The notes under the pieces: model-generated
Databases searched by the model: none
The model's input: the letters and a program-made list of their open reading frames with translations, nothing else
What the model was told of the DNA's origin: nothing
Part shown: positions 2,004 to 31,093 of the stretch, in pieces
Layout: each line of letters opens with the position of its first letter
Position numbering within the stretch: position 1 is the stretch's first letter
Sequence record: SRR2962707_3147
DNA length: 59,480 bases
Direction: 5' to 3' (one strand)
Program-made: the position numbers and the translations under genes

Positions 2004-2789
2004 TTACCGTTTCGGCTCGGTGCTGGTGGCGGGGGCCTCAGCGTCCTGCGTCTCGAAGTCGCGAACCATGCTGTCGTAAGAGGGGTGCACGGTGCCCATC
2101 ATCCGGTCCCAGATGGAAAAGAAATTGCCGTAATTGTAGCGGAACGTCGAGTGATGCAGATCATGGAAAGATGTGCAGATCATCGGTGACGGCCAGCGCG
2201 AGGTCGGCGAGGCGAAATACTCAAAGCCAGAGTGCCCGATCATGCCGGATATCTGGTCGAACACCCGCTGTGCGGCCAGCGCCAGCGCCGGCATCGGCAG
2301 CACGAACCAGACGATCAAATAGTATCCATGCTCGATCAGGGTATCGACGGTGGTGGAGGAATCATTGCTCCACACCGTGGGCGCCACCGACTTGTGATGC
2401 GGCGCGTGCCAGCGGTAAAACATCTTTAGGTGCAACAACCGGTGGCCCCAATAGAACCAGGCATCGTAAAGCACCATGGAAACCCCGAACATCAGCGCCA
2501 CCGACCACCAGGAGGTTTCGAGCGGCGCAATCGTCCAGCCGCGCACCTGGGCAAAATAGCCGAAGGAGAGCATCGCGGCCGAAACCGCCAGCGCAGACAG
2601 GGAGGAGCGGATCTCGACCCACATGCGCTTGTCGCCGTTGCGGGTTTTCTGGATGCGGCGATCCGGATGACGCCGGTTGATGAGGGTCATGCCGATCCCG
2701 GTCGCGAAATAGATCACCACCGTCGCGCCATAGACGATGGCGAAATACAGCAGATATTGCGAAACAGGGCCCATCAACGAAGACAACAT
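2004..2789 (-). CDS. Sterol desaturase / fatty-acid hydroxylase superfamily protein (paralog 1)
   Basis: His boxes HRLLH, HAPHH and HDLHH; NYGNFFSIWDRMMGT; TM segments; AGGAG RBS before ATG 2789. Confidence 0.88.
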   Translation of the reverse strand: MLSSLMGPVSQYLLYFAIVYGATVVIYFATGIGMTLINRRHPDRRIQKTRNGDKRMWVEIRSSLSALAVSAAMLSFGYFAQVRGWTIAPLETSWWSVALMFGVSMVLYDAWFYWGHRLLHLKMFYRWHAPHHKSVAPTVWSNDSSTTVDTLIEHGYYLIVWFVLPMPALALAAQRVFDQISGMIGHSGFEYFASPTSRWPSPMICTSFHDLHHSTFRYNYGNFFSIWDRMMGTVHPSYDSMVRDFETQDAEAPATSTEPKR

Positions 2790-3198
2790 GCCGATACGAT
2801 TCTCCTGATTTTCCTGTGCCGGGTATATCTCAGTGCAGTCGGGATCCAAGCAAGTCCGAGTAGTCTCATATAGCTCAGCCGGTACGCAAGTTTAATCCCC
2901 CTGCCAAATGCGCGCACCCTGCCTGCGAACCTACGTTGGAACACGGCAATAGCCAGAAGGGTCTTCGCCGGACGTTTGAACAAGCAGAGCTGCGCTACAG
3001 ATCAAATGGGTAGTCCATGAACTGCATTGAACCCGCAGCGGTTTGTCCTTAAAGCTTTGTCTTGGTCAAACGCATCGGCAAAACCGGCAGTTTGAGAGCT
3101 GGAGACCAACTTTCGATCGAGACGCAGGCCGTCAGGCATGCCGTTTCGGGCTGCAAGTGCCAACGGGACATAGCTTACCGGACAGGGACGACGGATCA

Positions 3199-3975
3199 TT
3201 GATACAGTTGATAGCAGAATTTGCACTGTTCTGGATCGTTGCCTATGCAGCCGGCGTCACGATCATGTTCAGCGTCGGCTTCGTGATCATCCAGATCAAC
3301 AAGCGGCACCCGGAACGAAAGATCCAGAAACGGGAACCGACACATTCCGCCCGGAAGGACATCTTGTCGTCTCTCAAGCAGATTGCAGTCACAGCGACCT
3401 GTCTTGCGGTTGGCTTCTTTTCCCAATGGAAAGGCTGGACGATTACGCCGGTCGACCTTAGCTGGTGGTCCTTTCCGGTTTTCTTTGTCATCAGCATCGT
3501 GCTGCACGACGCATGGTTTTATGCCGGGCACCGCCTTTTGCACACCAAGGCGCTCTACCGCTTTCACAAGCCGCACCACATGACCATCACTCCCACGGTG
3601 TGGTCGAACGATGCTGGCTCGTCGGTCGATACACTGTTTGCCCACAGCTACTACGCACTGGTTCTGTTCGTGATCCCGATGCCGGCGGCCAGCCTGATCG
3701 CGCACCGCCTTTTCGACCAGGTGAGCGCCATTATCGGGCATTCGGGCTATGAGTACTTCGCCAACTCGACCAGCCGGGCACCATGGCCAATGATCTGCGT
3801 GACCTATCACGATCAGCACCATTCCGAATTCGTCTACAATTACGCGAACTATTTCAGCTGGTGGGACCGGATTTTCGGCACCATCCACCCGCATTACGAT
3901 CACATCATCAAGGGGTGGGAAGAAACTGACGCGCGACCACACATGCCGAAGGCCAAGGAACAGATAGACTATTAG
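3199..3975 (+). CDS. Sterol desaturase / fatty-acid hydroxylase superfamily protein (paralog 2)
   Basis: His boxes HRLLH, HKPHH and HDQHH; NYANYFSWWDRIFGT. Start uncertain; TTG 3199 chosen by alignment with the paralogs. Confidence 0.86.
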   Translation: MIQLIAEFALFWIVAYAAGVTIMFSVGFVIIQINKRHPERKIQKREPTHSARKDILSSLKQIAVTATCLAVGFFSQWKGWTITPVDLSWWSFPVFFVISIVLHDAWFYAGHRLLHTKALYRFHKPHHMTITPTVWSNDAGSSVDTLFAHSYYALVLFVIPMPAASLIAHRLFDQVSAIIGHSGYEYFANSTSRAPWPMICVTYHDQHHSEFVYNYANYFSWWDRIFGTIHPHYDHIIKGWEETDARPHMPKAKEQIDY

Positions 3976-4121
3976 ACTGATGTGCATGGTGCACGATCGG
4001 TCGCGAATCCTGACTGCTGAAATTCGTGGCGACCTAACTGCTGTTCGTGTCATCATTGGAGACGCGCCAAACCAGCGGTGAACCCTATCATTCACCCGAA
4101 TCCCCGGAAGATGTCACCGAC

Positions 4122-4925
4122 ATGCATGTAATCATCACTGGTGGATCCAGCGGAATCGGTGCCGCGATAGCTGAAATCGAAACGCAGCGCGGTGCGAGAG
4201 TTTCGATTGTTGCCAGGCGTGAAGAGCCGCTCAGAGAGCTTCGTGCACAGATCCTGGCACAGTATCCGTCCGGACAGATCAACATTTGTGCTGCCGATGT
4301 TACAGATGCTGAGGCGCTGGAGAGGGCCATTGAAACCTGCGAGGAAGTCTCTGGCCCGTGTGACCGGCTGATTGCTGCAGCTGGCATTGTCGAACCTGGG
4401 GAATTGATCTCGCAGGACATGGAGAGTTTCCGCTCGCAGATCGAAACCAACCTGTTCGGAACGGCCAATGCGGTTCGTGCTGTCTATTCCGGGATGGTCC
4501 AGCGCCAATCGGGACAGATCGTCATCATATCGTCGGGAGCCGGACTGATCGGGATTCACGGCTATACGGCCTATTGCGCCTCCAAACATGCGCTTGCGGG
4601 GTTTGCCGAAGCTCTGCGCCAGGAAGCAAAGCCAAATGGAATAGCCATTTCCATCTGCTTTCCGCCGGACACAGAAACGCAGCAACTGGCAGCAGAACTG
4701 CCGCTGCGTTCGCCGGCGGCCGCGGCCATCATCGGAGGCGCGAAACCCTGGCCGGCGGACCGGGTCGCGCGCATTATCGTCAAAGGCGCGGACCGTGGCC
4801 GGTTCGAGATTTATCCAGGGGTGCTGATGGCGCTGCTGGGCCGGTTCGGAGCGCTCATCGCCCCTGTGCTGCGGTGGCACTTCGACCTGAAAATCGCAGC
4901 TGTCCGCAAGAACCAGGACCAGTGA
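4122..4925 (+). CDS. SDR oxidoreductase, 3-ketodihydrosphingosine reductase (KDSR/Tsc10)-like
   Basis: TGGSSGIG Rossmann motif; YCASK catalytic motif; ALAGFAEALRQE and CFPPDTET resemble the KDSR PPDTDTP motif. Confidence 0.82.
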   Translation: MHVIITGGSSGIGAAIAEIETQRGARVSIVARREEPLRELRAQILAQYPSGQINICAADVTDAEALERAIETCEEVSGPCDRLIAAAGIVEPGELISQDMESFRSQIETNLFGTANAVRAVYSGMVQRQSGQIVIISSGAGLIGIHGYTAYCASKHALAGFAEALRQEAKPNGIAISICFPPDTETQQLAAELPLRSPAAAAIIGGAKPWPADRVARIIVKGADRGRFEIYPGVLMALLGRFGALIAPVLRWHFDLKIAAVRKNQDQ

Positions 4926-5127
4926 GCGCTTTGCCTTTTGCGCAGCCGTGAAATACCCTGTCGACGTTCGCCCTGCATCGCTTCACACGACGTGCGCATT
5001 GCAGGAAACAGTAGAATCGGCTGGAGGCATTCGAGTATGTCACGTTGTAAACGCGTTATGCTTCGCAAACGCTGCCGCGCAGTTCTCCATGAATACTTAT
5101 AACCCGCTGAAACCTGACAGGCTCCAG

Positions 5128-6174
5128 ATGAAACCACTCGACTTGATCAAGGCGCCGATATGGCTGGCGGAACTGGCCAGCGGCGCCAAATCGTTCAAGA
5201 ACAATCCGATTATCGGAAGCCGATGGCTTAATGAGCGTGGGTTGCACATCGCCCGCCTGCGGCAGGCCGAAAGCATGGCCGACAGCAGGCGGCGACGGTT
5301 GACCCATCTGGTCGACAGCGAGGACGCGGAGAGCTTTGCCCGCGACGGCTATGTGATGCGCCGCAACGCCCTGCCCGCCGATGTGTTTGCGCGGCTGCGC
5401 CGGCAGGTGGAAGAGCATGAATTTCCGGCACAGGAAATGCTGCAGGGCAATGCCGTCACCCGCTTCATCCCGATCACGCGGGCGATGATGGACACGCATG
5501 CCGAGCTTGGCGCTTTCGTGCGCGGACGGCTGTTCCAGGGGCTGCTTCGCTACGTTGCCGCTGCCAACGCGGACCCGATAAGCTTCATCCACACGGTCTT
5601 CGCCGAGCCCCACCGGGGGCCACGCGACCCGCAGACCCTGTTTCACTCTGACACGTTCCATTCCACCGCCAAGGCCTGGTATTTTCTGACCGATGTAGCC
5701 GAAGACGGCGGGCCGTTGACTTATGTGCCGGGTTCGCACCGGATGACGCCCGCGCGCCTTGCCTGGGAACAGGAACAAAGCCTCACCGCGCGGAGCAACG
5801 TCAACAGCCATCACGCGAGCGGCTCGTTTCGGGTATCGGACGAGCAGCTACGCGATATGGGGTATGCAGCGCCCGCACGTATTGCCGTGCCGGCCAATAC
5901 GCTGGTGGTCGCCGATACGCACGGGTTTCACGCCAGAGCGGCCAGCGAGAGGCCGACTGTGCGCCTCAGTCTTTACGGCTCGCTGCGCCGCAATCCGTTT
6001 GTGCCCTGGACCGGCCTCGACCCTTTCAGCCTGCCCGGGCTGCAAGGCCGCCAGGCGGAAATCCACGACGCGATCAACACCTGGCAAGCGCAGCGAGGCG
6101 CATCGGGCCAGCCGCCGGTGGGACCGGTCAAGCCACTCGACCCGCCGCGCCGCTGGGACAAGAGCGCTGACTGA
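5128..6174 (+). CDS. Phytanoyl-CoA dioxygenase (PhyH) family Fe(II)/2-oxoglutarate dioxygenase (paralog 1)
   Basis: HSD...H facial triad (FHSDTFH, DTHGFHAR) and GPLTYVPGSH. Confidence 0.85.
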   Translation: MKPLDLIKAPIWLAELASGAKSFKNNPIIGSRWLNERGLHIARLRQAESMADSRRRRLTHLVDSEDAESFARDGYVMRRNALPADVFARLRRQVEEHEFPAQEMLQGNAVTRFIPITRAMMDTHAELGAFVRGRLFQGLLRYVAAANADPISFIHTVFAEPHRGPRDPQTLFHSDTFHSTAKAWYFLTDVAEDGGPLTYVPGSHRMTPARLAWEQEQSLTARSNVNSHHASGSFRVSDEQLRDMGYAAPARIAVPANTLVVADTHGFHARAASERPTVRLSLYGSLRRNPFVPWTGLDPFSLPGLQGRQAEIHDAINTWQAQRGASGQPPVGPVKPLDPPRRWDKSAD

Positions 6175-6187
6175 TTGAGTCAACGCG

Positions 6188-7237
6188 CTAATCCTGCGGC
6201 AAGCGCAGTTCGCCGAGCATGTACCAGTGCTCGACATTCTCGATCACCAGCGGTTCGAAGATCTCGTTGAATTTCAGAACTGTTGCGGCAACCGGATAAG
6301 GCTTGTCAGCGTCGCTCGCCTTGGCCAGTGGCGGCAGGATGACGAGTTTGAAGCGGGCACCTCTGGTCCGTTTGAGGTAAACCGGCAGCAGCGTGCCGCC
6401 GGTGGAATTGGCAAGCTTGACCGCAACAACCGCATTGCCCTTGTCGGGAGGTGAGCGGCCGAACAGCGGCAGATGTATCTGAAAATCGCGGACGTCATCG
6501 AGGAAGAAGATCACAGACGCCGCACCACCACCGGCGAGCAGGCGCTGCAGCCTGAAGGCACTGCGTTGGCCGGGCGGAAACATATAGTGATTGCGCCGCT
6601 TGCGGCTGCCATAGACGATCCGGTTGGTAAACCGGCTGGGTTCCGGTTGGAAGGGCCCGATGTTGGGCGATGCGATGCCCTGCTGGGCCGCGGCTGCAGT
6701 TGCCTCCCAGGTGGACAGGTGCATGGAAACCAGAACCAGCGGGCCACCTTGCGCATGGGCCGCCGCCAGATTCTCCACGCCTTCGACGGTGATCCGACCC
6801 TTTGGCCAGAGAGCGTTGACGATAGAATACTCGGCCATTGTCCGGCCGATATTGCTCCACCAACGGATCAATGCAGCCCGATGGCGGGCGGGTGTATCGC
6901 AGCGTTCCGGAGCGAGAGCCTGCAAATTTCCGGCGATCCGTTTGGCAAAGATCCGGTCCTTGTAGCGCCAATAGGCGAGCAAGCTCAGCTGTCCCGCCAG
7001 GGCGGAGCCAAGGTCACAGGGCAAGAAGCGGAACAATGTGTGGGAGATCTGGTTGATCCGGCCTTCTATCGGCTGCTTGAGCCAGTAAAGCTTCGCCCAT
7101 GAGCGTTTCGGCTGGTCTTTTGCCCAGACATCCCGGAGAGGCGGCGCTTCGGCTTCCTGCGGATAGGTTTCCTCAAACGGAATGTCCGCAAGCGTCAGTG
7201 GGGCGCGTTTCCCGTCATCGTTGATCTTGTCCTTCAC
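6188..7237 (-). CDS. LpxL/HtrB-like lipid acyltransferase
   Basis: HLSTWE (HxxxxE), NIGRTMAEY, LPLFGR, C-terminal HWYM. Lies 7 bp downstream of the P450 on the same strand. Confidence 0.8.
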   Translation of the reverse strand: MKDKINDDGKRAPLTLADIPFEETYPQEAEAPPLRDVWAKDQPKRSWAKLYWLKQPIEGRINQISHTLFRFLPCDLGSALAGQLSLLAYWRYKDRIFAKRIAGNLQALAPERCDTPARHRAALIRWWSNIGRTMAEYSIVNALWPKGRITVEGVENLAAAHAQGGPLVLVSMHLSTWEATAAAAQQGIASPNIGPFQPEPSRFTNRIVYGSRKRRNHYMFPPGQRSAFRLQRLLAGGGAASVIFFLDDVRDFQIHLPLFGRSPPDKGNAVVAVKLANSTGGTLLPVYLKRTRGARFKLVILPPLAKASDADKPYPVAATVLKFNEIFEPLVIENVEHWYMLGELRLPQD

Positions 7238-7244
7238 TTCGCGC

Positions 7245-8648
7245 TCACCCGGATCGAGGCTGCAGGATCATCGGCAGCGTCTCGCCGGGACGCAGCGTCA
7301 GCCGGCAGACCGGCTGTACATCCGTGCCGGGCTTGAGCTTCAGATCGAACTGCCGTGCCAGCATCACCAGACTCAGGATCGACTCGGTCATGCCGAACTG
7401 AAGGCCGGGACATATGCGTGGGCCGATGCTGAACGGCACATAGCCGTATTTGTTGGGCTTCATGCTGTCTTGCAGAAACCGTTCCGGCCAGAATGTATCT
7501 GGCAAATCCCAGAGCACAGGATTGCGGTGCATGAGCCATGGAACCACCAGAACCAGAGAGCCCTTGCGGATCGGTTTGTTGCTGATCGAGGTGTCTTCAG
7601 TCGCCTCCCGCGCCAGAATGGGCACCGGCGGGTAGAGCCGCAGCGTTTCCTCGATCACCGCCTTGGCATAGGGCAGGCTGGCAATATCCTTGAACGTTGG
7701 CGTCCGGTCACCTAGCACTGCATCGATCTCGGCGTGCAGCTTGGTGCGAACGCGGGACGACTGCGAGATTAGGTACCATGTCCAGGCCAGCGTATTGGCG
7801 GTGGTTTCATGCCCGGCCATGAAGATGACCGCTGCCTCGTTGCGGATCGCCTCGCGCGACAACGGGTTGCCGTTGTCATCGCGGGCTTCCAGCAGGCCGC
7901 CGATGACGGACACTTCACCGGCGTCCTTTCGGGCGTGGTAGCTGTCGATGATTTCATCGAGAACTTCGAGAATGCGTGTCTTGGCCTGCTTCAGCGCCTT
8001 GCTGCGATAGCGCGGGAGCCAATCCGGCAGGCCGAAGATCGCAAAAAGATCGACCTGGTCGATGTGCTTCTGGTACTCGGTAAAGCCCCGGACCACTTCG
8101 CTCGCATAATCCTTGCCAAGCTGACGCCCGAAGATGGTACGGCTGATGATTTCCGCCGTCAGGTGCGCCATTTCGGCCAGGACATCGATCTCGGACCCAC
8201 TGGGCCTGGACGCCCACTCGGCGCGTTTTTCCTCGATCGTGTCGACCATGATCGGGGCAAAACCCGGAACCCGCGAGCCGTGGATGATCGGCGCGACCAG
8301 CTTCCGCCGCTTCATCCAGGTCTCGCCATCGCTGACAAACAGACCGTCACCCAACAGCGGTTGCAGGGCATGACGCATTTGCGGGCTCTTGCGTTGCAAG
8401 GCAGCGTGGTTGGTCTGGAAGGCTTCGCGAACGACATCAGGCCGGTTGCAAAGAATCAACTCGCGGCTGAACACCTTGAGGCTTCTCAGCCGTCCCTGAA
8501 AATCTCTGGTTCCCCAGATCGACAGGAAGTTCTTCTTTGCCATGCCAATCAGGGTCCACACCGGCGGTGTGACTTCGTGGCGGAAGGGATAGGGCGGAAC
8601 GAAATCGTTTGCGTCTTCGTTATGCAAGACAGGATCGGTCAGGCTCAC
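7245..8648 (-). CDS. Cytochrome P450
   Basis: I-helix AGHETTA, ExxR in EETLRLYPP, PERF, heme motif PFSIGPRICPG. Start uncertain (GTG 8648; frame open to 8852). Confidence 0.93.
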   Translation of the reverse strand: MSLTDPVLHNEDANDFVPPYPFRHEVTPPVWTLIGMAKKNFLSIWGTRDFQGRLRSLKVFSRELILCNRPDVVREAFQTNHAALQRKSPQMRHALQPLLGDGLFVSDGETWMKRRKLVAPIIHGSRVPGFAPIMVDTIEEKRAEWASRPSGSEIDVLAEMAHLTAEIISRTIFGRQLGKDYASEVVRGFTEYQKHIDQVDLFAIFGLPDWLPRYRSKALKQAKTRILEVLDEIIDSYHARKDAGEVSVIGGLLEARDDNGNPLSREAIRNEAAVIFMAGHETTANTLAWTWYLISQSSRVRTKLHAEIDAVLGDRTPTFKDIASLPYAKAVIEETLRLYPPVPILAREATEDTSISNKPIRKGSLVLVVPWLMHRNPVLWDLPDTFWPERFLQDSMKPNKYGYVPFSIGPRICPGLQFGMTESILSLVMLARQFDLKLKPGTDVQPVCRLTLRPGETLPMILQPRSG

Positions 8649-8944
8649 ACAGGCTTCCACTTCGGCTACGAGGGTCAGGGATGAATTCTTACGGGTTCGC
8701 TTTGTGTTTAATGCATCAACAGGCGAGTTTCCCCAACATAATTGCCCATTCGCACACAAACCGGCCGCTACGACACGAACCGCCTGGCCACCCGCACATG
8801 CATGGCCGGGATGCGCCTGCGACGACATAGCCCCGGCCCCGCTCTTTCGCAATCCTGAGCAGATGCGCTATAGAGGCACCACATCCGGGATTGCAAAGCC
8901 GCCTGGCGGCAGATTTGTTTTCTTGTATTAGGAGAAAACCTGAA

Positions 8945-9730
8945 ATGATGGAAATCATGAATTTCGGCGATGCCGACAGCTGGTTTGCTCTGGCCAAACA
9001 GTTTCTTTCGCTGTTTGGCGTGGTGTTACTGGCCCTCGTCATCGTGCTTGTCAGCGTTGGCCTCGTGTTCGAGTTTCTCAACGCGCGACACCCCGAACGG
9101 AAGATTCAAAAAGGCCGGACCAACAAACGCAAATGGAAAGAGCTCTACCGGGCGCCGGGATCGCTTGCGATCATCGCGTTCTGCTTTTCGGGCGGTTTGT
9201 TCGCGCAGATGAAGGGCTGGACCATCACGCCCTTCGCGCTCAACTGGTGGACAGGCCCGCTTTTTCTGGCCGCATCGGTTGTGCTCTATGACACCTGGTT
9301 CTACTGGATCCACCGGCTGCTGCACCTCAAGCCGTTCTACCGCTTTCATGCCCTGCATCACAAAAGCCTGGCGCCAACGGTGTGGAGCAACCACAATGAA
9401 TCGCTGACCGAAGCCTTTCTCAATCAGGCCTTTTATCTGATCATCCCGTTTTTCCTGCCCATTCCCTGGCAAATGCTGGTTTTGCAGAAGCTCTATGACC
9501 AGGTCAGCGGCATGTTGGGCCACGCCGGTTTCGAGCATTTCGCGTCACCTGCCGGCCGCACACCGTTTCCGCTGGCAAGCACGGTTTTTCACGATCAGCA
9601 TCACTCACATTTTTCGTACAATTACGGCCATACGTTTTCGATCTGGGACCGCATGCTCGGCACGCTTTACCCCAAATACGATGCTACGCTTGAAAGCTTC
9701 GAGGCCCCCAAGCCTGGCAAACCGGAATAA
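8945..9730 (+). CDS. Sterol desaturase / fatty-acid hydroxylase superfamily protein (paralog 3)
   Basis: His boxes HRLLH, HALHH and HDQHH; NYGHTFSIWDRMLGT; AGGAG RBS. Confidence 0.88.
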   Translation: MMEIMNFGDADSWFALAKQFLSLFGVVLLALVIVLVSVGLVFEFLNARHPERKIQKGRTNKRKWKELYRAPGSLAIIAFCFSGGLFAQMKGWTITPFALNWWTGPLFLAASVVLYDTWFYWIHRLLHLKPFYRFHALHHKSLAPTVWSNHNESLTEAFLNQAFYLIIPFFLPIPWQMLVLQKLYDQVSGMLGHAGFEHFASPAGRTPFPLASTVFHDQHHSHFSYNYGHTFSIWDRMLGTLYPKYDATLESFEAPKPGKPE

Positions 9731-9786
9731 TCCGGCGACGCGATGGCTCGGTTGACGCTCCCGGGACGGCGCGTGACGATGACACT

Positions 9787-10596: not shown

Positions 10597-10754
10597 TCAC
10601 TTTCAGAACTGCCGGCAATGTAACATTTGCTGGACCAAACCCTTCGAACCCGGCGAAGTCTCACCGTGATCAAAGCGAATGCCTGCCGAACAGGCTAATT
10701 AAAGCATCGTTCGATTAATAGGATGCGAACCGGGGAGACATGCAGTGGTTGCGG

Positions 10755-20485: not shown

Positions 20486-21760
20486 TCACATTTCATGTCG
20501 CAGCTTCCGCTCGTCAACAAAGCGAGGCGGCACTTCCACGAAGGCATCGGGACAATTTACGGCACCGTTGATGATACGGGCAACGATTTCGGCGATAGCC
20601 ACCATGCGTCCGGTCTTGTTGTAGAAATCGCCTTTGACCTGAATCGACGCAGCCAGCGCTCTTGTAAACTGGTCAAGCAATGCAGGATCGACCGGTGTCG
20701 GGTCGTTCCAGAAACTGTCCAACCCCTCCTGATGGGTAAGGCCCTTGACGTCATAGACGGCACTGCCCAGCACAATTGTCGGCCGTCGCGCGGCAAGGCT
20801 ATGCAGGCCAACCGTGGAATTGACGACGATGACACCGCTGACTTTCGGCAGCAAAATGTTGATATCGCCCTTGTCGATGAAGTCCACACGCTTGGCAAGA
20901 CCATAACGATCAGCAATCTGCGGAACAACTTTCTCCCACCTCTCCAGACCGTTGTCCAAAGGATGCTGCTTGATCACAAGACGCACATGTTCCGGCGCAA
21001 ATTCGGCGAATGACCGAATCACTTCCTCCAGCATTTCCGACAAATGCGCATACGGTGAGTTCGCGCGGATCTGGTAGTCGCTCTGCAACTGAAGAGCGAG
21101 CATGAAGAAAGGCGGGCTATCATTTTTCAGGTACCGCGCCGGCATGGTTTTCGGCCGCCGGAACATGCGGGGCAACCACATGACATATTCGAAGAACGGA
21201 TCGTAGTATTTGTCAGCCTGGTAGCGGGGGAAAATCAGGCGACCCAGATACGCCGCCAGATTGTAGACAACCTCATTCGAGGCCTCCTGCCAGAATTTGT
21301 GCGGGTAACGCACGACCATATCGGCCGGACCGACCTGGCTGGCGATGGTGGCTATCTGCTCAGGCTGATCGGGAAAATGTGACAGGCGCCCCATGCCACC
21401 GCGTTCCAGAGTGATCCAGTCCGGGCGCAGATATCCATTCTCAACCGCATGACACTTGACGCCGAAGCGCTTCGCTACTTCCGCTGCGACACGATGATAG
21501 GGCAGCTGATCTGCATAATAGAGAATATCGGTGATGTTCTCGCGAACAATGAAGTCACTGAGATAAGCCGACCAGGCAGACAACGGCTTTCTGAAGTTCC
21601 GGGCACCCGGCTTCTGCCAGTAAAGCCAGTCCCCGAGCGAGAAATTGACATGATGAGCCTTAACGCCTGCAGCCTCGAAGCCCTGCGCCAGCTCGCGCCA
21701 GAATATGGACGGCGGCCCTTGAAGCAACAAAACGGCAGGCTGCTGCGTTTCACTCGACAT
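20486..21760 (-). CDS. kpsS: KpsS/RkpJ/WcbO-family capsule biosynthesis protein (paralog 1)
   Basis: LLLQGP, ENGYLRPDWITLE, LQLQSDYQIRANS, KQHPLD and VNSTVG. Confidence 0.88.
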   Translation of the reverse strand: MSSETQQPAVLLLQGPPSIFWRELAQGFEAAGVKAHHVNFSLGDWLYWQKPGARNFRKPLSAWSAYLSDFIVRENITDILYYADQLPYHRVAAEVAKRFGVKCHAVENGYLRPDWITLERGGMGRLSHFPDQPEQIATIASQVGPADMVVRYPHKFWQEASNEVVYNLAAYLGRLIFPRYQADKYYDPFFEYVMWLPRMFRRPKTMPARYLKNDSPPFFMLALQLQSDYQIRANSPYAHLSEMLEEVIRSFAEFAPEHVRLVIKQHPLDNGLERWEKVVPQIADRYGLAKRVDFIDKGDINILLPKVSGVIVVNSTVGLHSLAARRPTIVLGSAVYDVKGLTHQEGLDSFWNDPTPVDPALLDQFTRALAASIQVKGDFYNKTGRMVAIAEIVARIINGAVNCPDAFVEVPPRFVDERKLRHEM

Positions 21761-22087
21761 TACGTGACACTTTCTGACCTGCCGAAGCGGCTCCGGCTCG
21801 ATGGAGCGAGAGACCTGCCCTGCATGCATTATTACGCTCTGCCGTCGGACAACCAAGGCGTTCAATAGGATTTGCGTGTGGCTGTACTCGAAAACACATC
21901 AAATTGAAATCAACCAAGTGACTAAACCACAGTCAATACGACAGCGTGACGATCAAGAATAACGAATCGTAAACAAACAAGACCGGAACCGGTCACACAG
22001 CAGGGGCCGGTGTGACACGTCTGGTTGCCACAAGCCGGCGCATGGATGATAAGGGCGCGAACAACAAGCTGACGTTTTGGAATCTTC

Positions 22088-23398
22088 ATGGCGAATACAA
22101 TCTTGTTCCTGCAGGGGCCGTCTTCACCGTACCTGAAGTATGCGGCAGACAGTCTTCAGTCAAACGGCTGGAGAGTTCACAAGTTGCATTTTTGCATGGG
22201 AGACGCCGTTCTCTGGTGGCCGAAGCCCGGCGACTGGTTCAAAAAGCCAACGACCGAGTGGCCGGCCTTCCTGAAACAGTACATTCTCGATCACGGCGTA
22301 ACGGACATGGCGATGCTCGGCGATGGCCGCACCCGCCACGCGGAAGCTCTCAAGGTCGGTCTGGCGCTCGGAATACGGATTCACGTGTTTGAGCACGGTT
22401 ATCTGCGCCCTGACTGGCTGATGATTGAAACCCGCAGCTCGACTGAAGGGACGCCCCGGCGTTCAGACGCCCTCACCGTCAAAAGCCTGACAGAAAAAGG
22501 GACGCCCGACCGATCATGGACCCAGCCGGTCTTTACCCAGAGCTTTCTGGTCTCTTCCCTGTATGACCTGGCTTTCCACGTCCCGAATGTGATTTTGGGA
22601 CGCCTGGTTCACCCTCACTACCGGACCCACGGCCCGGTTCATCCGTTTGTGGAATATGCCGGATGGGTGAAGAAGGGGCTGATTCGAAAAAGCCGCCGCC
22701 GAGACGCGCTGCATATGCAGACCCGCTATCTTGAAGAAGCTCCCGACTATTTTCTGTTCGCCTTGCAGTTGTTCGGCGATTACCAGATCCGCAACCATGC
22801 ACCGGCCGGCAGCCTTTACAAAATCGTCGATGGCGCCATCAGATCGTTTGCAAAATACGCGCCGCCCCATTGCAGGCTCCTGTTCAAAACCCACCCGCTG
22901 GACAATGGCCTGTACAACTGGTCGAGCAACATTGCGGCCGAGGCTCGCAAACATGGCATCGAAGACCGCGTCGATGTGATTGACGGGGGGGATCTCGACG
23001 CCTTGATCGACAAGTCTGTCGGCGTGGTGACGGTCAACTCCACCGTCGGGGTTACAGCGCTGCTTGCGCACAAACCGGTTCTGGCCCTGGGCCGGGCGAT
23101 TTACGATCAGCAGGGGCTGACGCATCAGTCCAGCATGCGGGATTTCTGGACCGATCCACGAGGGCCCGAGGCCGGACTTCCCGAGGCGTTCGCGGAAAAA
23201 CTGATCGAGCTTACGCATTTTCGCGGCGGATTCATCGGCAGAGCTGCGATGGAAACAGGGGGCAGGAACATGGCGGACCGAATCGAGGCCAATGCTATGA
23301 AAACCAGCCATGACGATTTCTCCGGAGCTTCAGAGTTTCGCTACGAAGACGAGCTGTTCAACCTGCCCGACCCGCAAGACAGGTCTGACCCGGCTTGA
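22088..23398 (+). CDS. kpsS: KpsS/RkpJ/WcbO-family capsule biosynthesis protein (paralog 2)
   Basis: LFLQGP, EHGYLRPDWL, LQLFGDYQIRNH, KTHPLD and VNSTVG. Confidence 0.86.
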   Translation: MANTILFLQGPSSPYLKYAADSLQSNGWRVHKLHFCMGDAVLWWPKPGDWFKKPTTEWPAFLKQYILDHGVTDMAMLGDGRTRHAEALKVGLALGIRIHVFEHGYLRPDWLMIETRSSTEGTPRRSDALTVKSLTEKGTPDRSWTQPVFTQSFLVSSLYDLAFHVPNVILGRLVHPHYRTHGPVHPFVEYAGWVKKGLIRKSRRRDALHMQTRYLEEAPDYFLFALQLFGDYQIRNHAPAGSLYKIVDGAIRSFAKYAPPHCRLLFKTHPLDNGLYNWSSNIAAEARKHGIEDRVDVIDGGDLDALIDKSVGVVTVNSTVGVTALLAHKPVLALGRAIYDQQGLTHQSSMRDFWTDPRGPEAGLPEAFAEKLIELTHFRGGFIGRAAMETGGRNMADRIEANAMKTSHDDFSGASEFRYEDELFNLPDPQDRSDPA

Positions 23399-23494
23399 AA
23401 AAAGCCCGCAAATCGTGGATTTTGTGCGCCATGCCGTAGCTTAAATTTCATTAAGGAAATTATGCAAAATTGCCACACCGGTCGGGTTCACCCC

Positions 23495-23504
23495 AAAAAA
23501 AAAA
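23495..23504 (+). repeat. A10 homopolymer upstream of the polysaccharide export gene
   Basis: cccc-aaaaaaaaaa-ggg read directly from the sequence. Confidence 0.9.
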
Positions 23505-23559
23505 GGGCATCCTTCTCGTCATTGTTAATTTAAAGCTGTAGAGAGTGTGCGAATATCGC

Positions 23560-24771
23560 ATGACTATGGTTCGGGGATCTGGTTTGAGACAATCTAGAGC
23601 AATCAAGCAGATGGCAACACTTGGACTCTGCTTGTCCCTGAGTGCATGCCAGATAGTTCCAGGCCAGGGGCCTCTTACCTCGCAGATCGTCGATAATGCT
23701 GGCCGGTCTGCGAAGGAGCTTTCCCTCCCGCACGCCACAGTCTTCGCATTGACGCAGGTGGATACGCCCATCGCGCGGCTTTTGTCACAATACCGGGCCC
23801 GGACCCTGAGCACGCGTTTCGGTTTCGGCAATGGCAAGAACTCGGCTGCCATCGGCGTCGGCGACCAGTTGAAGATCACGATTTTTGAAGCCGGCAGCGA
23901 CGGCCTGTTTTCGACAACCGACACGAAGCAGATTTCATTTGATCTGGTTGTCCAGCCAGATGGCACCGGCGCCATTCCCTATGTTGGCGACGTCCGCTTT
24001 GCCGGGCGCACCCTGGCTCAGGCGCGCGCCACAATCAAAGCAGGACTTGAAGGCAAGGCAGTCCAGCCAGATGTTATCGTGACCGCAATGGGAACTGCAT
24101 CGCGCACAGTCACCGTATCGGGAGCTGTCAATGCCGCAGGGCTCATTCCGATCAGTCTCAGTGGCGATCAGCTTGCCGAAGTCATTGCCAAGGCCGGCGG
24201 CAACAACGCCCAGCCCTACGAGACCCAGGTGACGGTCATGCGCGGCAAGAAAGTTGCCCGGGTCCTCTACAGCTCGATCATCGAGAACTCGAGCGAGAAT
24301 ATTTACATCTATCCCGGAGATCAGATTTTTCTGGCCCGTGACCCACAGACATTTACGGTCTTGGGGGAAGCCATTTCCAACAAGCGTGTCGAGTTTGGTT
24401 CGAGCAGTCTCAATCTGGCTGAAGCGGTGGCGCTTGCCGGTGGTGGTTCCGACAGTCGTGTTGATGCGAATGGTTATTTCGTGTTCCGCTTCGAACAACG
24501 CGAAGTCATCGAAGCCGTGCTTGGCAGGGACAAGTTCCAGCAGCTGCTCGCCAAGGGCATGGAGCCGGACGAGTTCAATCGCTACCCGATTGTATACCAG
24601 TTCGACATGAGCAAGGCCGACAGCCTGTTCGTTGCTCAGAATTTCCGCATCAACAGCCGCGACGTGGTCTATCTGTCGAGGCATCCGTCCGTTGATATAG
24701 CGAAATTCGTTGCGATGGTTCAGGGGCCGATTTCGGTCGCCTCGTCCATCAGCGACATTGCTACTCCCTGA
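23560..24771 (+). CDS. OPX-family polysaccharide export outer-membrane lipoprotein (Wza/WcbC/RkpU-like)
   Basis: Lipobox LSAC; PES domain IGVGDQLKITIFE...VQPDGTGAIPYVG; SLBB repeats (VTVSGAV, TVLGEA). Start uncertain. Confidence 0.88.
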   Translation: MTMVRGSGLRQSRAIKQMATLGLCLSLSACQIVPGQGPLTSQIVDNAGRSAKELSLPHATVFALTQVDTPIARLLSQYRARTLSTRFGFGNGKNSAAIGVGDQLKITIFEAGSDGLFSTTDTKQISFDLVVQPDGTGAIPYVGDVRFAGRTLAQARATIKAGLEGKAVQPDVIVTAMGTASRTVTVSGAVNAAGLIPISLSGDQLAEVIAKAGGNNAQPYETQVTVMRGKKVARVLYSSIIENSSENIYIYPGDQIFLARDPQTFTVLGEAISNKRVEFGSSSLNLAEAVALAGGGSDSRVDANGYFVFRFEQREVIEAVLGRDKFQQLLAKGMEPDEFNRYPIVYQFDMSKADSLFVAQNFRINSRDVVYLSRHPSVDIAKFVAMVQGPISVASSISDIATP

Positions 24772-25062
24772 TCACGCAGCGCAGCGGGATCGAAATCGGC
24801 TGCTTGTTGAATGCTGCGCTGTAATCAGCAAGGTGACACCGGACATGAGCCCGTGTATCGTGCCCGAAAGAGCACGGGTAAATGCTTGTGAATGATCCTG
24901 ATGATCAAACGCTTGCTCCGCAAGCTTCTCATTGCGCTGCCACCGTCAGGTTTATTGCGCATATGGGTGGTTCATCTTCCCCCTTGAGGGGGTTTGCTTT
25001 CCTCGCTTGGGTCGCACGCTTAAACAGCAGCCAGCTTCAAGCGAAATGTTGATCTTTCGGGC

Positions 25063-26706
25063 ATGAGTTTCATGCAGAACGGGATTCCTGGAATGAACAC
25101 TCAGAGTTACAATGTCTTGCTTCTCTATCCCCGCTTTACCGCAGGATCGTTCTGGAACTACGGCGCCACATGTGAACTCATCGGAGCCAAATATCCGGCG
25201 CCTCCTCTCGGATTGATCACTGTCGCGGCGATGCTGCCCGATTCCTGGAACGCCCGCCTGGTTGACCGCAACACCGATGAATTGACGGATGCCGACTTCG
25301 AATGGGCCGACATGGTGTTCACCGGCGGTATGTTGCCGCAACAGGCAGATGCCTTGAGAATGATCCGGAAGTGCAAGCAATTCGGAGTGCCTGCAGTGGT
25401 GGGCGGTCCCGATGCAACGTCGAGCCCGGAAATTTACGAAGCAGCTGAATTCCGCGTTCTCGGCGAAGCCGAAGGCATTTTTGAAAAATTTATTGAGGCC
25501 TGGGAACGGGGTGAGCGCAGTGGGACGTTTGCGGCGGAGAAGTTCAAGGCCGACGTGACAACGACGCCAATTCCCCGCTTCGACCTGCTGAACTTCAAAA
25601 ACTATGTGCAGGTCAACGTGCAGTTCTCGCGCGGGTGCCCCTTTACCTGCGAATTCTGCGATATCATCGAGCTTTACGGCCGCAGGCCACGAACAAAGAA
25701 CAATGCGCAGATGCTTGCCGAACTCGACCGGTTGTACGAACTTGGCTACCGCGGTCACGTGGACTTTGTCGATGACAACCTCATCGGCAACAAGAAGGCT
25801 GTGAAGGCCTTTCTGCCGGATCTGATCGAATGGCAGAAAAAGCACAACAATGCCTTCGAGATGTCGACCGAAGCGTCGCTTAATCTGGCGGATGACAAGG
25901 CGCTGCTGGACATGATGCAGCAGGCGCGGTTCTTCTCGGTGTTCATCGGCATCGAGAGCCCTGACCCGGATGTGCTGATCGCTGCTCAAAAGAAACAGAA
26001 TACACGTCGCGACATCGCCAAGAGCGTACACCGTATTTACGATGCGGGAATCTGGGTTCTGGCAGGCTTCATTGTCGGTTTTGATGAGGAAAACGATCAC
26101 GTCGCCAAGGAGATCTCGGCGCTGATCGAAGAGGCGGCTATCCCGGTTTCGATGGTCGGACTTCTGTTCGCCTTGCCCACAACACAGCTCACCCGCCGGC
26201 TTGAGCGGGAAGGTCGTCTTCACACAACCTTCGATACTTTCGATGAAGATACAGAAGATCACTTCGGAGATCAGTGCACGGCCGGCCTGAATTTCGAGAC
26301 CAAGCGTGACCGCGTCAAGATCCTTCAGGACTACAGGGATATTGTTGACCGGATATATGAACCGGAAGCCTATTTCCGCCGGGTCCGAAATGTCAGCGAC
26401 ATGCTCAACATGAAGGGCGAAAATGGCGCGCTTCTGGGGGCTGGATTTGGTCACGACCTGAAAATGTTCGGCAAGCTGATCTGGTCCATGACATTTACCA
26501 ACACCACCTATCGCGGCCCATTCTGGCGCACCCTGATACACACCGCGTTTCACAATTTCCGCGCGATCAAGCCGGTCATGATGATGATCGCCCTCTATGT
26601 GCATCTCGGACCCTTCTCACGCTATGTCGTCCAGCAGATAGACGCGCAGATTGCAGAAGTCGAAAGCGGAGAGTGGACCGCGCCGGAGCTGGTTGCTGCG
26701 GAATGA
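25063..26706 (+). CDS. Cobalamin-binding radical SAM protein (HpnP-related, DUF4070-type C-terminus)
   Basis: N-terminal B12 domain (PPLGLITVAA, VVGGP); RGCPFTCEFC (CxxxCxxC); FVDDNLIGN; IGIES. Confidence 0.88.
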   Translation: MSFMQNGIPGMNTQSYNVLLLYPRFTAGSFWNYGATCELIGAKYPAPPLGLITVAAMLPDSWNARLVDRNTDELTDADFEWADMVFTGGMLPQQADALRMIRKCKQFGVPAVVGGPDATSSPEIYEAAEFRVLGEAEGIFEKFIEAWERGERSGTFAAEKFKADVTTTPIPRFDLLNFKNYVQVNVQFSRGCPFTCEFCDIIELYGRRPRTKNNAQMLAELDRLYELGYRGHVDFVDDNLIGNKKAVKAFLPDLIEWQKKHNNAFEMSTEASLNLADDKALLDMMQQARFFSVFIGIESPDPDVLIAAQKKQNTRRDIAKSVHRIYDAGIWVLAGFIVGFDEENDHVAKEISALIEEAAIPVSMVGLLFALPTTQLTRRLEREGRLHTTFDTFDEDTEDHFGDQCTAGLNFETKRDRVKILQDYRDIVDRIYEPEAYFRRVRNVSDMLNMKGENGALLGAGFGHDLKMFGKLIWSMTFTNTTYRGPFWRTLIHTAFHNFRAIKPVMMMIALYVHLGPFSRYVVQQIDAQIAEVESGEWTAPELVAAE

Positions 26707-26738
26707 GGCGATCCGTTGGGTATGATGCTGCCTGGGTT

Positions 26739-26845
26739 CTAAAGCACGTTGCATTGAATTGTATTCAAGCAGTGTGCTTTAGGCTTCTGTTTTAGCGCGT
26801 GTTCTATTCCGAAAACCGTTCCCCACTTTTCGGAACACGCTTTAG
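26739..26845. repeat. RIME-like intergenic palindromic element, copy 2
   Basis: Two hairpins (ctaaagcac...gtgctttag and gcgtgttc...gaacacgc); similar to 1-92. Confidence 0.8.
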
Positions 26846-26918
26846 AGCCGTTCGATTGATCGGACCACGGCCGAGATTCATTGCCGTATTTGAGCACCCT
26901 GATTCTGCGGCCACCAAC

Positions 26919-27014
26919 GCGCGTCACATCAAACCGGTTCCGGGTGACGCGCTTTAGCTCTTTGTTTTTGCATGCCGTTATCGCAAAACCGCTCAACACA
27001 TTTGCGCGACATGC
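26919..27014. repeat. More divergent RIME-like element, copy 3
   Basis: Hairpin gcgcgtcac...gtgacgcgc, then tttag-ctctttgttttt and gcatg...cgcaaaaccg...catgc. Same two-hairpin architecture as copy 2. Confidence 0.7.
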
Positions 27015-27044
27015 ATGAATGCGGAGCTGCGTTCACGAGACCTC

Positions 27045-28076
27045 TCAGATCTGCGCCGGCGCATTGACCGTCACCGCACCAACCGGCCGCCAGATGTGCG
27101 GTTTCTTCAGGTATTTCTCCTGCGCGTCCGAAACCGCCATGAACAGCTGCAATTCGCGTCCGCGAATTCCCGGCAGGGACTTGGGGTCGAGCCCCGTCCA
27201 GGGGAGAAACGGGCTGCGGCGCATGTGCCAATGCAGTTCGCAGCGAATTGTCGGCTTGTCCGACGGGGTCCGTCCATGAAAGGCAAATGTATCGGCGACG
27301 ATCAACGTGTTGGCCCGGACGGCCATGCGCACGGGTTGGCGCAGGTTCAAGCCGGAGAGCTCTTCCGGCTGCACACGGAATGATCCACTGGCATGATGGC
27401 TATCGGGATCGGTGGCTGCGGAAAGAGAACACTGATGCTGCCAGTTGAGCCGTTCAGGCGTCAGCCGGTGGGAGCCGGGGACAAAGCAGAAGGGACCGTC
27501 CTCCTCGCTCACATCCTGGAGGAACAGCCATGCCTTTGAGGTGGCATGGAACGTGTCCGAATGGATGTTGGATTGAGGATCTTTCTGACCGGAAGGATCA
27601 ACGATCACAGTCTGGAAAAAACTGATCGGCTCGCCTCCCTGCGAGGCAGCATAGCGGATCTGGGCCAAAGCCCGCGGATCACGAAGGGCTCTGGCAACTG
27701 CGGGGTGGCGGTCAAGAACCTCGGGTGGCAATGGCACCATTCTGGTCACAGCCTGGCCCTGCCGCATCTCGCGGGCCTCGAACCGCTCTTCGAAAGCGGC
27801 CTTGCGCAGGGCTTCAAAATCCTCCTTGGGCAGAAAATCCTTCGTCAGGAAGTAGCCGTTTTCGTCAAAGGAGTTGCGGTCAGATTCCGACAAGCTCGAA
27901 GCCAGCCGTGCACGACGCATCTTTGCCATTTTGGCGGCCACCGACACACGCGTGCGATGAAGCCCCAACCGGTTCAGATACGGACTTCCAAGGATGGGGT
28001 TCTTGCGCAGTGACTTCTCCGCGCCGGCAACGCCGAGAATCCAGAACGGCAGATTGAGATATTCGAGAGCCTTCAT
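27045..28076 (-). CDS. PhyH-family Fe(II)/2-oxoglutarate dioxygenase (paralog 2)
   Basis: IHSDTFH, GPFCFVPGSH and DTFAFHGR; collinear with the 5128-6174 protein. Confidence 0.86.
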   Translation of the reverse strand: MKALEYLNLPFWILGVAGAEKSLRKNPILGSPYLNRLGLHRTRVSVAAKMAKMRRARLASSLSESDRNSFDENGYFLTKDFLPKEDFEALRKAAFEERFEAREMRQGQAVTRMVPLPPEVLDRHPAVARALRDPRALAQIRYAASQGGEPISFFQTVIVDPSGQKDPQSNIHSDTFHATSKAWLFLQDVSEEDGPFCFVPGSHRLTPERLNWQHQCSLSAATDPDSHHASGSFRVQPEELSGLNLRQPVRMAVRANTLIVADTFAFHGRTPSDKPTIRCELHWHMRRSPFLPWTGLDPKSLPGIRGRELQLFMAVSDAQEKYLKKPHIWRPVGAVTVNAPAQI

Positions 28077-30014: not shown

Positions 30015-30027
30015 AGGATGCAGCCAT

Positions 30028-31089: not shown

Positions 31090-31093
31090 ACCG

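Follow-up and report, generated by a model that had tools for sequence, protein, structure and literature searches.

The product of the 'lipid carrier' genes of the rkp-1 and wcb capsule loci has been an open question since the 1990s, and the chemistry reported for a Pseudomonas system in 2025 was not connected to capsules. The locus studied here lies in a 59,480-nt stretch of sequence record SRR2962707_3147 (the window), which comes from a marine alphaproteobacterium of Hoeflea type and where a polyketide synthase (PKS) gene and an alpha-oxoamine synthase (AOS) gene stand among capsule genes together with a short-chain dehydrogenase/reductase (SDR), three membrane di-iron hydroxylases (FAH1-3), a cytochrome P450, an LpxL-type acyltransferase, two 2-oxoglutarate (2-OG) dioxygenases (PhyH1 and PhyH2) and a B12-binding radical SAM enzyme. 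Genes were taken from an open reading frame (ORF) listing combined with Pfam and NCBIfam scans, and every gene named in an initial annotation of the window, including the whole of this tailoring set, was found. We favor, with modest confidence, the reading that a hydroxylated, acylated very-long-chain sphingolipid made by this locus primes or anchors an ABC-transporter capsule. The island, which is of a type conserved in Hoeflea, joins PKS-sphingolipid chemistry and capsule genetics.

The proposed pathway has five steps. An iterative, fully reducing PKS would build a very long saturated acyl chain on its own acyl carrier protein (ACP) domain (step 1), an AOS resembling serine palmitoyltransferase (SPT) would free the chain through a decarboxylative condensation, most likely with serine as the amino acid, to give a 3-keto sphingoid base (step 2), and the SDR would reduce the 3-keto group (step 3). 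In step 4, about nine enzymes would probably decorate the base: the FAH paralogues, the P450 and possibly the PhyH pair would add hydroxyls or double bonds, the LpxL-type acyltransferase would acylate either the amine (ceramide-like) or a newly introduced hydroxyl (acyloxy, in the manner of LpxL and lipid A), and C-methylation may fall to the radical SAM enzyme. In step 5, the product would gain a phospho-headgroup, by analogy with the phosphoglycerol-sphingolipids of Pseudomonas, and would serve two enzymes of KpsS/KpsC type as the acceptor for beginning the Kdo linker; the rhamnose-containing capsule would be exported by KpsMT-KpsE and an outer-membrane polysaccharide export protein (OPX). 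Steps 1-3 have been shown for homologues elsewhere and would hold for Hoeflea by analogy; steps 4 and 5 we infer solely from gene linkage and co-occurrence.

The PKS-AOS-SDR core

The PKS ended about 40 aa after its ACP with no TE or R domain in the Pfam domain order, and its gene overlapped that of the AOS by 4 bp (12706-12709), in agreement with the initial annotation, which had described a TE-less reducing PKS overlapping an AOS gene. The AOS gene in turn overlapped the next gene, orf183, by 4 bp. The PKS and AOS are translationally coupled. All of the PKS motifs were present (DTACSS, HGTGT, DPQQR, GHSIGE, HxxxGxxxxP, HGGAGAVG, LDD/YxxxN and GIDSL); there was no Pfam match to a methyltransferase domain in the PKS, and its DH-ER linker held only a degenerate methyltransferase-like stretch. 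The PKS was 82-94% identical to the Hoeflea copies and 44-50% to a PKS on a Shinella plasmid.

The AOS protein was 94, 90 and 88% identical to those of three Hoeflea genome records and 50-57% to PKS-adjacent AOS genes of other Hyphomicrobiales. In the PKS-AOS pairs found elsewhere (104 of 401 Hyphomicrobiales genomes carried the AOS), identities were 44-57% for the AOS and 35-42% for the PKS. The closest solved relatives of the AOS in the PDB were SPTs (3a2b/8guh, 2e-69; SPTLC2, 6e-68), with BioF/KBL enzymes almost level at 1e-66, and NCBIfam ranked the AOS highest against BioF (353 bits, under the cut-off), then against a BioF/Kbl subfamily model, with SPT models after these.

The SDR shared 53% identity with the SDR that immediately follows the AOS on the Shinella plasmid, 42-45% with SDRs in P450-acyltransferase (P450-AT) modules of genomes G102 and G345, and only 29-36% with SDRs at the RkpH position. 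By its sequence it is a generic classical SDR, not recognisably a KDSR; of the 'KDSR-like' reductase in the initial annotation, the reductase stood and the KDSR label proved not specific. The core is, judged by the identity of its PKS and AOS to clusters of other Hyphomicrobiales, a member of the family that comprises RkpA/G/H, WcbR/T/P and SgaA/B/C.

Comparison with known systems

C24, C26 and C28 sphinganines are made in Pseudomonas fluorescens MYb115 by SgaA, an iterative type I PKS, together with the AOS SgaB (Peters et al., Nat Commun 2025, PMC12134224). A further group of products, heavier by 154 Da, was assigned as phosphoglycerol-sphingolipids; SgaB acts as an SPT with a strong preference for serine over alanine and glycine, and labelled serine was incorporated in vivo; a nearby SDR, SgaC, is the proposed keto-reductase (PMC12134224). 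The PKS-AOS-SDR logic leading to a long-chain amino-alcohol, which had been proposed for the window, is therefore established for the homologous SgaA/B/C (PMC12134224). The authors counted 6,101 homologous clusters, and the genus table of their supplement gives Burkholderia 3452, Sinorhizobium 241, Rhizobium 142, Ensifer 87, Shinella 4 and others, with Hoeflea not listed in it (PMC12134224). Because Sinorhizobium, Rhizobium and Burkholderia are among these genera, rkpA/G and wcbR/T belong to the same family by the authors' own search. The Pseudomonas and Hoeflea systems both pair a monomodular, iterative type I PKS with an AOS next to it, and in both a keto-reductase role is proposed for an SDR. 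What sets Pseudomonas apart is that the available text describes neither oxygenases nor an acyltransferase and makes no connection to a capsule (PMC12134224). A term search of that text returned no mention of capsule, kps, Kdo, polysaccharide, rkp, wcb, hydroxylase or P450. A PKS-derived sphingoid base is no longer new, having been published for Pseudomonas; the tailoring set is a genuine, previously undescribed extension of the core.

The rkp-1 products are said to make and modify 'a specific lipid carrier' for the capsular polysaccharide KPS (PMC4881576), and RkpA/WcbR form a distinct clade of monomodular PKSs (PMC3908369). The poly-Kdo KPS of S. meliloti has a lipid anchor; rkp-1 mutants lack KPS, and rkp-1 is required for poly-Kdo secretion (PMC4881576, PMC5539429). 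Sinorhizobium rkp-1 (rkpA, G, H, I, J) and Burkholderia wcbR/T/P/O share with Hoeflea a PKS, an AOS, an SDR and a KpsS-like gene tied to an ABC-transporter capsule, and the core order PKS-AOS(-SDR)-KpsS was seen in 12 of 30 sampled loci. Unlike Hoeflea, the canonical rkp/wcb loci had no FAH, P450, PhyH, LpxL-type or radical SAM gene within 20 kb (0/30).

The nearest named relative of the Hoeflea core was on plasmid pgSHIWSC3 of Shinella sp. WSC3-e (NZ_OZ000537.1). Within 30 kb, this plasmid carries KpsE-o380-MT-SDR-AOS-PKS-KpsS, a P450 followed by a 'lipid A biosynthesis lauroyl acyltransferase', a 'sterol desaturase family protein' and an OPX gene, where MT is a class I methyltransferase and o380 a gene of no family. 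Identities to the window were 56% (AOS), 44-50% (PKS), 53% (SDR), 61% (MT), 52% (o380), 46% (P450) and 51% (FAH), and the Shinella AOS was sister to the Hoeflea clade (SH-aLRT 99). Shinella differs in having one FAH rather than three, in lacking genes for PhyH, radical SAM and DUF6030 proteins over that stretch, and in being plasmid-borne and annotated only generically. In a separate observation, MT and o380 follow the rml genes in Hoeflea, whereas in Shinella they lie within the PKS-AOS-SDR-MT-o380-KpsE string (L215 684-2599); MT and o380 may belong to the lipid pathway.

In the fungal fumonisin (FUM1/8/13/3), AAL toxin and sphingofungin clusters, a reducing PKS without a release domain is off-loaded by an AOS, which uses alanine, and keto-reduction is followed by hydroxylation by P450 and 2-OG dioxygenase enzymes. 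The comparison with fumonisin made in the initial annotation holds for this enzyme logic, as an analogy and not as homology. The fungal clusters share no cluster homology with Hoeflea, where the PKS has no active C-methyltransferase domain and capsule export genes surround the locus; the fungi, by contrast, secrete their products as toxins. FUM13 and SphF are cited as KDSR homologues (PMC12134224).

Candidate tailoring enzymes

The motifs that we take to be catalytic were intact in FAH1-3 (His boxes), PhyH1 and PhyH2 (HxD), the acyltransferase (HX4E) and the P450 (FxxGxRxCxG). FAH1 had 87-95% identical orthologues in four Hoeflea genomes and 64-65% identical homologues in tandem triplets of G352 and G396. 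FAH3 was 62% identical to an FAH inside a second PKS-AOS cluster of G102 and gave a weak NCBIfam match to the ornithine-lipid hydroxylase OlsE (5.6e-07). The best PDB matches of the P450 were CYP97A3 (1e-52) and CYP102 (about 1e-39); for PhyH1, FAH3 and KpsS-like 2, the PDB sequence search returned nothing. The radical SAM enzyme matched PhpK, BchE, HpnR and ladderane-lipid radical SAM enzymes weakly in NCBIfam, was kept at the same place in Hoeflea (91-98% identical) and may C-methylate the lipid.

Co-occurrence with PKS-AOS pairs

An even, order-level sample of 401 Hyphomicrobiales genomes was divided into 104 AOS-positive genomes (RkpG-like AOS, E <= 1e-90), all but G001 with an AOS no more than 57% identical to that of the window, and 297 AOS-negative genomes. 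Thirty AOS loci of this sample were examined over ±20 kb; a PKS adjoined the AOS in 29, a KpsS-like gene was present in 12, and OPX in 8. The absence of the tailoring genes from these 30 loci suggested a Hoeflea-only invention, an idea that was overturned by genome-wide searches.

For these searches, the best 80 of the 104 AOS-positive genomes were compared with 80 AOS-negative genomes (every third of the 297, G005 to G318). P450 homologues (E <= 1e-95) were found in 33/80 AOS-positive and 0/80 AOS-negative genomes. PhyH homologues were found in 33/80 and 1/80, respectively, at an identity of at least 40%, or 33/80 and 5/80 at E <= 1e-20; for the FA hydroxylases the counts were 18/80 and 1/80 at an identity of at least 42%, or 19/80 and 5/80 at E <= 1e-15. 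The LpxL-type acyltransferase (E <= 1e-15; 28/80) and the radical SAM enzyme (at least 53% identity; 24/80) were counted in the AOS-positive set only. Fisher p values, which ignore shared ancestry, were 3.5e-12 for the P450, 7.7e-11 for PhyH and 2.9e-5 for FAH. In a quickly built AOS tree with 55 rows, 5-9 changes were needed to explain the P450-positive label, indicating that the P450-positive genomes are not one clade, though they are clustered. Of the 33 P450-positive genomes, 26 had an acyltransferase match as the next gene after the P450, in the same orientation.

Close tailoring homologues are therefore widespread in PKS-AOS-bearing Hyphomicrobiales, mostly unlinked to the pair and almost never found without AOS. 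The tailoring genes do exceed the canonical rkp/wcb loci, as the initial annotation had held, but they are not unique to Hoeflea; the co-occurrence search that it called for tied them to AOS genomes and found them mostly unlinked to PKS-AOS. Comparative support for a role in tailoring ranges from good (P450-AT pair) through fair (FAH and PhyH) to weak (radical SAM enzyme). The island is a key to otherwise orphan genes (P450-acyltransferase pairs, 'sterol desaturase' arrays and PhyH) that are scattered in Hyphomicrobiales almost only where PKS-AOS is present.

Physical linkage in other genomes

Where the P450-AT pair was linked to the core, the gene orders differed: KpsM-T-E-P450-AT-KpsS<-AOS<-PKS in G234; P450-AT-KpsS<-AOS<-PKS in G317; PKS-AOS, then AT<-P450, in G123; and OPX, P450-AT-SDR-PKS-AOS in G345. 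The pair also lay beside PKS-AOS in G102, G478 and the Shinella plasmid. In a class-level sample of 401 genomes searched for the P450, homologues at least 42% identical occurred only in G001, G630, G478 and G102, and all three of the non-Hoeflea ones sat 1-17 kb from a PKS-AOS pair; none of nine weaker P450s (34-41%) had PKS-AOS in the surrounding 11-40 kb.

Unlinked P450-AT pairs were two-gene units among unrelated housekeeping genes. Likewise, tandem FA_hydroxylase triplets in G352 (L194 9361-11744) and G396 (L195 9218-11627), with FAH1-like members 64-65% and FAH2-like members 60-66% identical, adjoined an 806-aa patatin/DUF3376 gene and housekeeping genes, far from their own PKS-AOS. Together with G375, these two genomes were nearest to Hoeflea in their tailoring genes (P450 70-76%, radical SAM 73-76%, acyltransferase 50-52%; FAH1/2-like 60-66% in G352/G396 and 54-58% for the two FAH copies of G375). 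All three spread these genes over four or more sites, and their AOS identities were 53-54% (G352, G396) and 52% (G375). Hoeflea consolidates a usually dispersed accessory set.

Two further arrangements of the pair were seen. It was duplicated in tandem in one genome (G162:C16:12941-17969), and on the megaplasmid pRtrCIAT899c (1174741-1216135) of Rhizobium tropici CIAT 899, whose lipid biology is well studied, a P450 (48%) was followed by an LpxL-type acyltransferase with no PKS within 20 kb.

Conservation of the island within Hoeflea

The whole block occurred in the same order in four other Hoeflea genomes (G001, G002, G003 and G433), synteny which indicates that the arrangement is not due to chance. 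Among 32 Hoeflea species genomes, orthologous AOS (at least 84%) and P450 (at least 86%) were found in exactly these four, so the block behaves as one unit of gain or loss. The Hoeflea-type capsule island is conserved from about 2.0 to 42 kb of the window. To the left of FAH1 stand genes for an FkbM-type methyltransferase and a fucosyltransferase-like GT10 (89-1883); GT10 is shared by G001 and G002, no copy was found on that side of FAH1 in G433, and the conserved island therefore probably starts at FAH1.

The four genomes vary in detail. The DUF6030 protein was conserved in them at 58-84% identity and had no match in the 30 other loci. G002 was without FAH2 and the acyltransferase, of which a 38-aa remnant was left (L002 15329-17842). 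In G003, a 2.3-kb insert between the acyltransferase and PhyH1 carried a 445-aa ORF without a Pfam family (L003 16488-18822). Two KpsE paralogues, about 30% identical to each other (34458-35723 and 36453-37727), flank KpsT in the window, and the same pairing was seen in G102 and G433.

Capsule genes and the proposed anchor

KpsS-like 1 lies on the same strand as the PKS, 280 bp upstream of it, and was 41-50% identical to KpsS-like genes beside other PKS-AOS pairs. Against the NCBIfam KpsS model, KpsS-like 1 and 2 scored 217 and 192 bits, respectively, with a cut-off of 600. KpsM, KpsT, two KpsE and OPX were all present with scores under the NCBIfam equivalog cut-offs. The initial annotation had placed KpsS, OPX and KpsEMT together within 2004-28076; KpsS and OPX do lie there, and KpsE, KpsM and KpsT are real but lie outside, at 34458-39641.

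Escherichia coli KpsS starts the Kdo linker on lysophosphatidylglycerol (lyso-PG). By analogy, a sphingoid base bearing phosphoglycerol would be a single-chain phosphoglycerol lipid like this acceptor, and the sequence evidence makes a capsule-anchor role of the lipid plausible. The group 2 capsules of E. coli and Neisseria are like that of Hoeflea in having KpsM, KpsT, KpsE, an OPX and KpsS/C-family genes; unlike Hoeflea, which has two single-domain Capsule_synth proteins, they have KpsS and a two-domain KpsC. The group 2 capsule is described as having its Kdo linker on a phosphatidylglycerol terminus (PMC13721041). In a search that left out most subscription journals and is not proof of absence, no publication tied PKS lipids of rkpA/wcbR type to capsule anchors of sphingolipid nature or to the tailoring genes, and the available text of two capsule reviews (PMC12220298, PMC13721041) held no PKS or sphingolipid in this context.

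More tentatively, PKS-made sphingoid phospholipids, and not lyso-PG, might anchor ABC-transporter capsules across rkpA/wcbR/sgaA-bearing Alpha-, Beta- and Gammaproteobacteria. The accessory set (P450->LpxL-type pair, FAH arrays, PhyH and B12 radical SAM), previously unrecognised, would then remodel the anchor into a lipid-A-like form with several hydroxyls and more than one acyl chain, and Hoeflea alone would bring the entire pathway together in a single locus. This broader proposal is speculative, and we would not yet expect it to hold.

Alternative explanations

Several observations weigh against a tailored sphingolipid anchor. No headgroup transferase and no CMP-Kdo gene (kpsF/kpsU type) was recognised among the window ORFs; the CMP-Kdo genes may lie elsewhere in the genome. 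In the core, the specificity motif of the PKS AT domain, YPFH, is ambiguous, the SDR was the third-best and not the best match in a reciprocal search with the canonical RkpH-position SDR, and the yeast-type KDSR TSC10 (8jat) was only about its 31st PDB match. None of the 30 AOS loci matched FAH1-3, the P450, PhyH1/2, the acyltransferase, DUF6030, orf183 or the radical SAM enzyme within ±20 kb (E <= 1e-3), only 5 of the 33 P450-positive genomes had the P450-AT pair no farther than 20 kb from the AOS, and the radical SAM homologues of 24 AOS-positive genomes were never near the AOS outside Hoeflea. The argument rests largely on co-occurrence, which shared ancestry inflates. The loss of the acyltransferase and FAH2 from G002 indicates that both are dispensable. 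The AF2 model of PhyH2 (pLDDT 81) was nearest in Foldseek to the sugar-modifying SnoN, HygX and KanJ, a likeness at family level only (TM about 0.4-0.5). The AOS-negative genome G281 (threshold E <= 1e-90) has a PhyH homologue (37%; G281:C51:3451-5668) immediately after a KpsS-like gene, a hint that enzymes of the PhyH family may work on Kdo or the capsule.

Of the competing explanations, the one that survives best is that the decorated sphingolipid stays free in the outer membrane or is released as a (glyco)sphingolipid, with the capsule using an ordinary phospholipid acceptor. The Pseudomonas study, which reports free sphinganines and phosphoglycerol-sphingolipids and in its available text mentions no capsule (PMC12134224), agrees with this, as does the lack of KpsS within 20 kb at 18 of the 30 PKS-AOS loci. 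Two clusters would also fit stand-alone glycolipids. G630 has a compact PKS-AOS-PhyH-GT4-P450 cluster, PhyH directly after the AOS, with no kps genes in 80 kb (G630:C1:2205000-2244999), possibly a stand-alone glycosphingolipid cluster; the second PKS-AOS cluster of G102 (G102:C9:1-20000) holds GT4, an LpxL-type acyltransferase, PF10118 'Metal_hydrol', a methyltransferase, FAH, a Stf0-type sulfotransferase and CysNC/CysD, and looks like a sulfated or glycosylated sphingoid-lipid cluster. However, KpsS-like 1 directly precedes the PKS in Hoeflea, at the distance given above, and a sphingoid base with phosphoglycerol would resemble the lyso-PG that E. coli KpsS uses. Where an AOS-positive genome had no KpsS adjacent, a KpsS-like gene was present elsewhere (10/10 cases, often 26-50 kb off), compared to 2/10 large AOS-negative genomes with such a gene. 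The loss of KPS in rkp-1 mutants and the need for rkp-1 in poly-Kdo secretion also argue against a lipid unconnected to the capsule (PMC4881576, PMC5539429). We consider this explanation a serious one that is nonetheless rather unlikely.

A second alternative, to which we give slightly less credence, is that the sphingoid lipid is made but some or all of the 'tailoring' enzymes act on other envelope targets and are co-located as part of a shared envelope programme, the PhyH pair and radical SAM enzyme on Kdo or capsule sugars, and the acyltransferase, P450 and FAH on the acyl chains of lipid A, ornithine lipids or another lipid. The genes for PhyH2 and the radical SAM enzyme are flanked by OPX and the rml genes, outside the lipid half, and taken with the folds nearest to PhyH2 and the KpsS-PhyH adjacency of G281, this suggests that the PhyH pair and radical SAM enzyme may act on sugars. 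Likewise, FAH triplets and P450-AT pairs are mostly found far from PKS-AOS among housekeeping genes, FAH3 weakly matches OlsE, and the acyltransferase family takes its name from lipid A. However, neither lipid A nor ornithine lipids are known to be confined to AOS-positive genomes, whereas P450 homologues were absent from the 80 AOS-negative genomes and, at matching identity, FAH and PhyH were each found in one. The P450-AT pair is, moreover, wedged between KpsS/Kps genes and PKS-AOS in several differing architectures, and PhyH directly follows the AOS in G630, where no kps genes were seen in 80 kb.

An AOS that uses alanine or glycine to give a 1-deoxy- or 1-desoxymethyl-sphingoid aminopolyol, a bioactive metabolite of fumonisin/AAL type and not a structural lipid, would suit the top NCBIfam score of BioF and the many oxygenases that recall fungal aminopolyol clusters (the analogy of the initial annotation; PMC7711896), but is improbable given that the closest solved relatives of the AOS are SPTs, that SgaB of the same family strongly prefers serine (PMC12134224), and that the locus is embedded in capsule genes with no tricarballylic-ester, transporter or self-resistance genes of fungal type among the annotated window ORFs.

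Locus layout and flanking genes

The features of the sphingolipid-capsule island are listed in Table 1. From left to right, the lipid half reads FAH1(-), FAH2-SDR-PhyH1(+), LpxL-type acyltransferase <- P450(-), FAH3(+), DUF6030 <- orf183 <- AOS <- PKS <- KpsS-like 1(-), followed by KpsS-like 2 -> OPX -> B12 radical SAM(+) and PhyH2(-). The right part, all on the plus strand, is rmlACBD, methyltransferase, o380, KpsE, KpsT, KpsE, o387, KpsM, a double GT2 and an epimerase.

Table 1. Features of the island, in window coordinates
Feature	Position	Strand	Evidence and remarks
FAH1, membrane di-iron FA_hydroxylase (Sur2/Scs7/sterol-desaturase superfamily)	2004-2849	-	PF04116 1.2e-26
FAH2, FAH1 paralogue (~54% identical)	3043-3975	+	Pfam 1.2e-23
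Classical SDR, candidate 3-keto-sphingoid reductase	4047-4925	+	adh_short 3.4e-47
PhyH1, Fe(II)/2-OG dioxygenase	5128-6174 (open from 4948)	+	PF05721 1.7e-12
LpxL-type acyltransferase (Lip_A_acyltrans, LPLAT superfamily)	6188-7237	-	PF03279 3.3e-14; 7 bp downstream of P450
Cytochrome P450	7245-8852 (real start ~8650-8690)	-	PF00067 1.2e-84
FAH3, third FA_hydroxylase paralogue	8891-9730	+	PF04116 1.3e-25
DUF6030 protein, N-terminal membrane anchor	9787-10596	-	PF19495 8.8e-48
orf183, small exported protein, signal-peptide-like N-terminus	10755-11306	-	4-bp overlap with AOS stop
AOS (RkpG/WcbT/SgaB type)	11303-12709	-	Aminotran_1_2 2.2e-47
Monomodular iterative type I PKS, 2499 aa (RkpA/WcbR/SgaA type)	12706-20205	-	Pfam: KS-AT-DH-ER-KR-ACP
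KpsS-like 1 (RkpJ position), putative beta-Kdo transferase	20486-21865	-	Capsule_synth 7e-72
KpsS/KpsC-like 2	22088-23398	+	Capsule_synth 5.1e-63
OPX (KpsD/Wza-like)	23545-24771	+	Poly_export + SLBB; PRK15078 3.9e-31
B12-binding radical SAM with DUF4070, candidate C-methyltransferase	25063-26706	+	Pfam
PhyH2, PhyH1 paralogue (45% identical)	27045-28076	-	PF05721 1.7e-11
rmlA-C-B-D, dTDP-rhamnose synthesis for capsule polymer	28486-31978	+	Pfam
Class I methyltransferase + o380 (no family)	32457-34461	+	Pfam/NCBIfam scans
KpsE-KpsT-KpsE-o387-KpsM export genes	34458-39641	+	KpsE TIGR01010 2.6e-61, 4.2e-58; KpsM NF050053 2.4e-19; KpsT ABC_tran
Double GT2 glycosyltransferase + NAD-dependent epimerase, right end of capsule block	39503-42886	+	Pfam; GT2x2 kept in G433

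Three ORFs were called too long at the 5' end, as orthologue alignments started at residue 56-68 for the P450, 61 for PhyH1 and 30-52 for FAH2; the true start of FAH2 is probably about 30-50 codons downstream of the called start. Two further conserved genes, orf183 and that of the DUF6030 protein, stand directly downstream of the AOS. There was no Pfam match for orf183 or o380 even at E <= 5, and none in NCBIfam for orf183. Atlas suggested a 'thermonuclease family' protein for orf183 (0.90) and Sulfotransfer_2 for o380 (38% of one cluster, 161 shared features); both were weak, unconfirmed leads for which Pfam gave no match.

The window contained no tRNA gene marking an island border and no GC anomaly, and a promoter/terminator scan of 1800-12000 was uninformative (2 promoter-like sites compared to 3.4 expected). 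A search of sequencing runs listed no RNA run for the window, and the DNA runs listed shared at most 0.38 of its words. Directly to the right of the capsule block are an AcrB/AcrA RND efflux pair and a divergent TetR regulator (42906-47962). These are followed by a c-di-GMP signalling group (48190-58362) that comprises a 1455-aa MASE1-CHASE-PAS hybrid histidine kinase, a REC-GGDEF-PilZ protein, a REC-GGDEF protein and an EAL protein.

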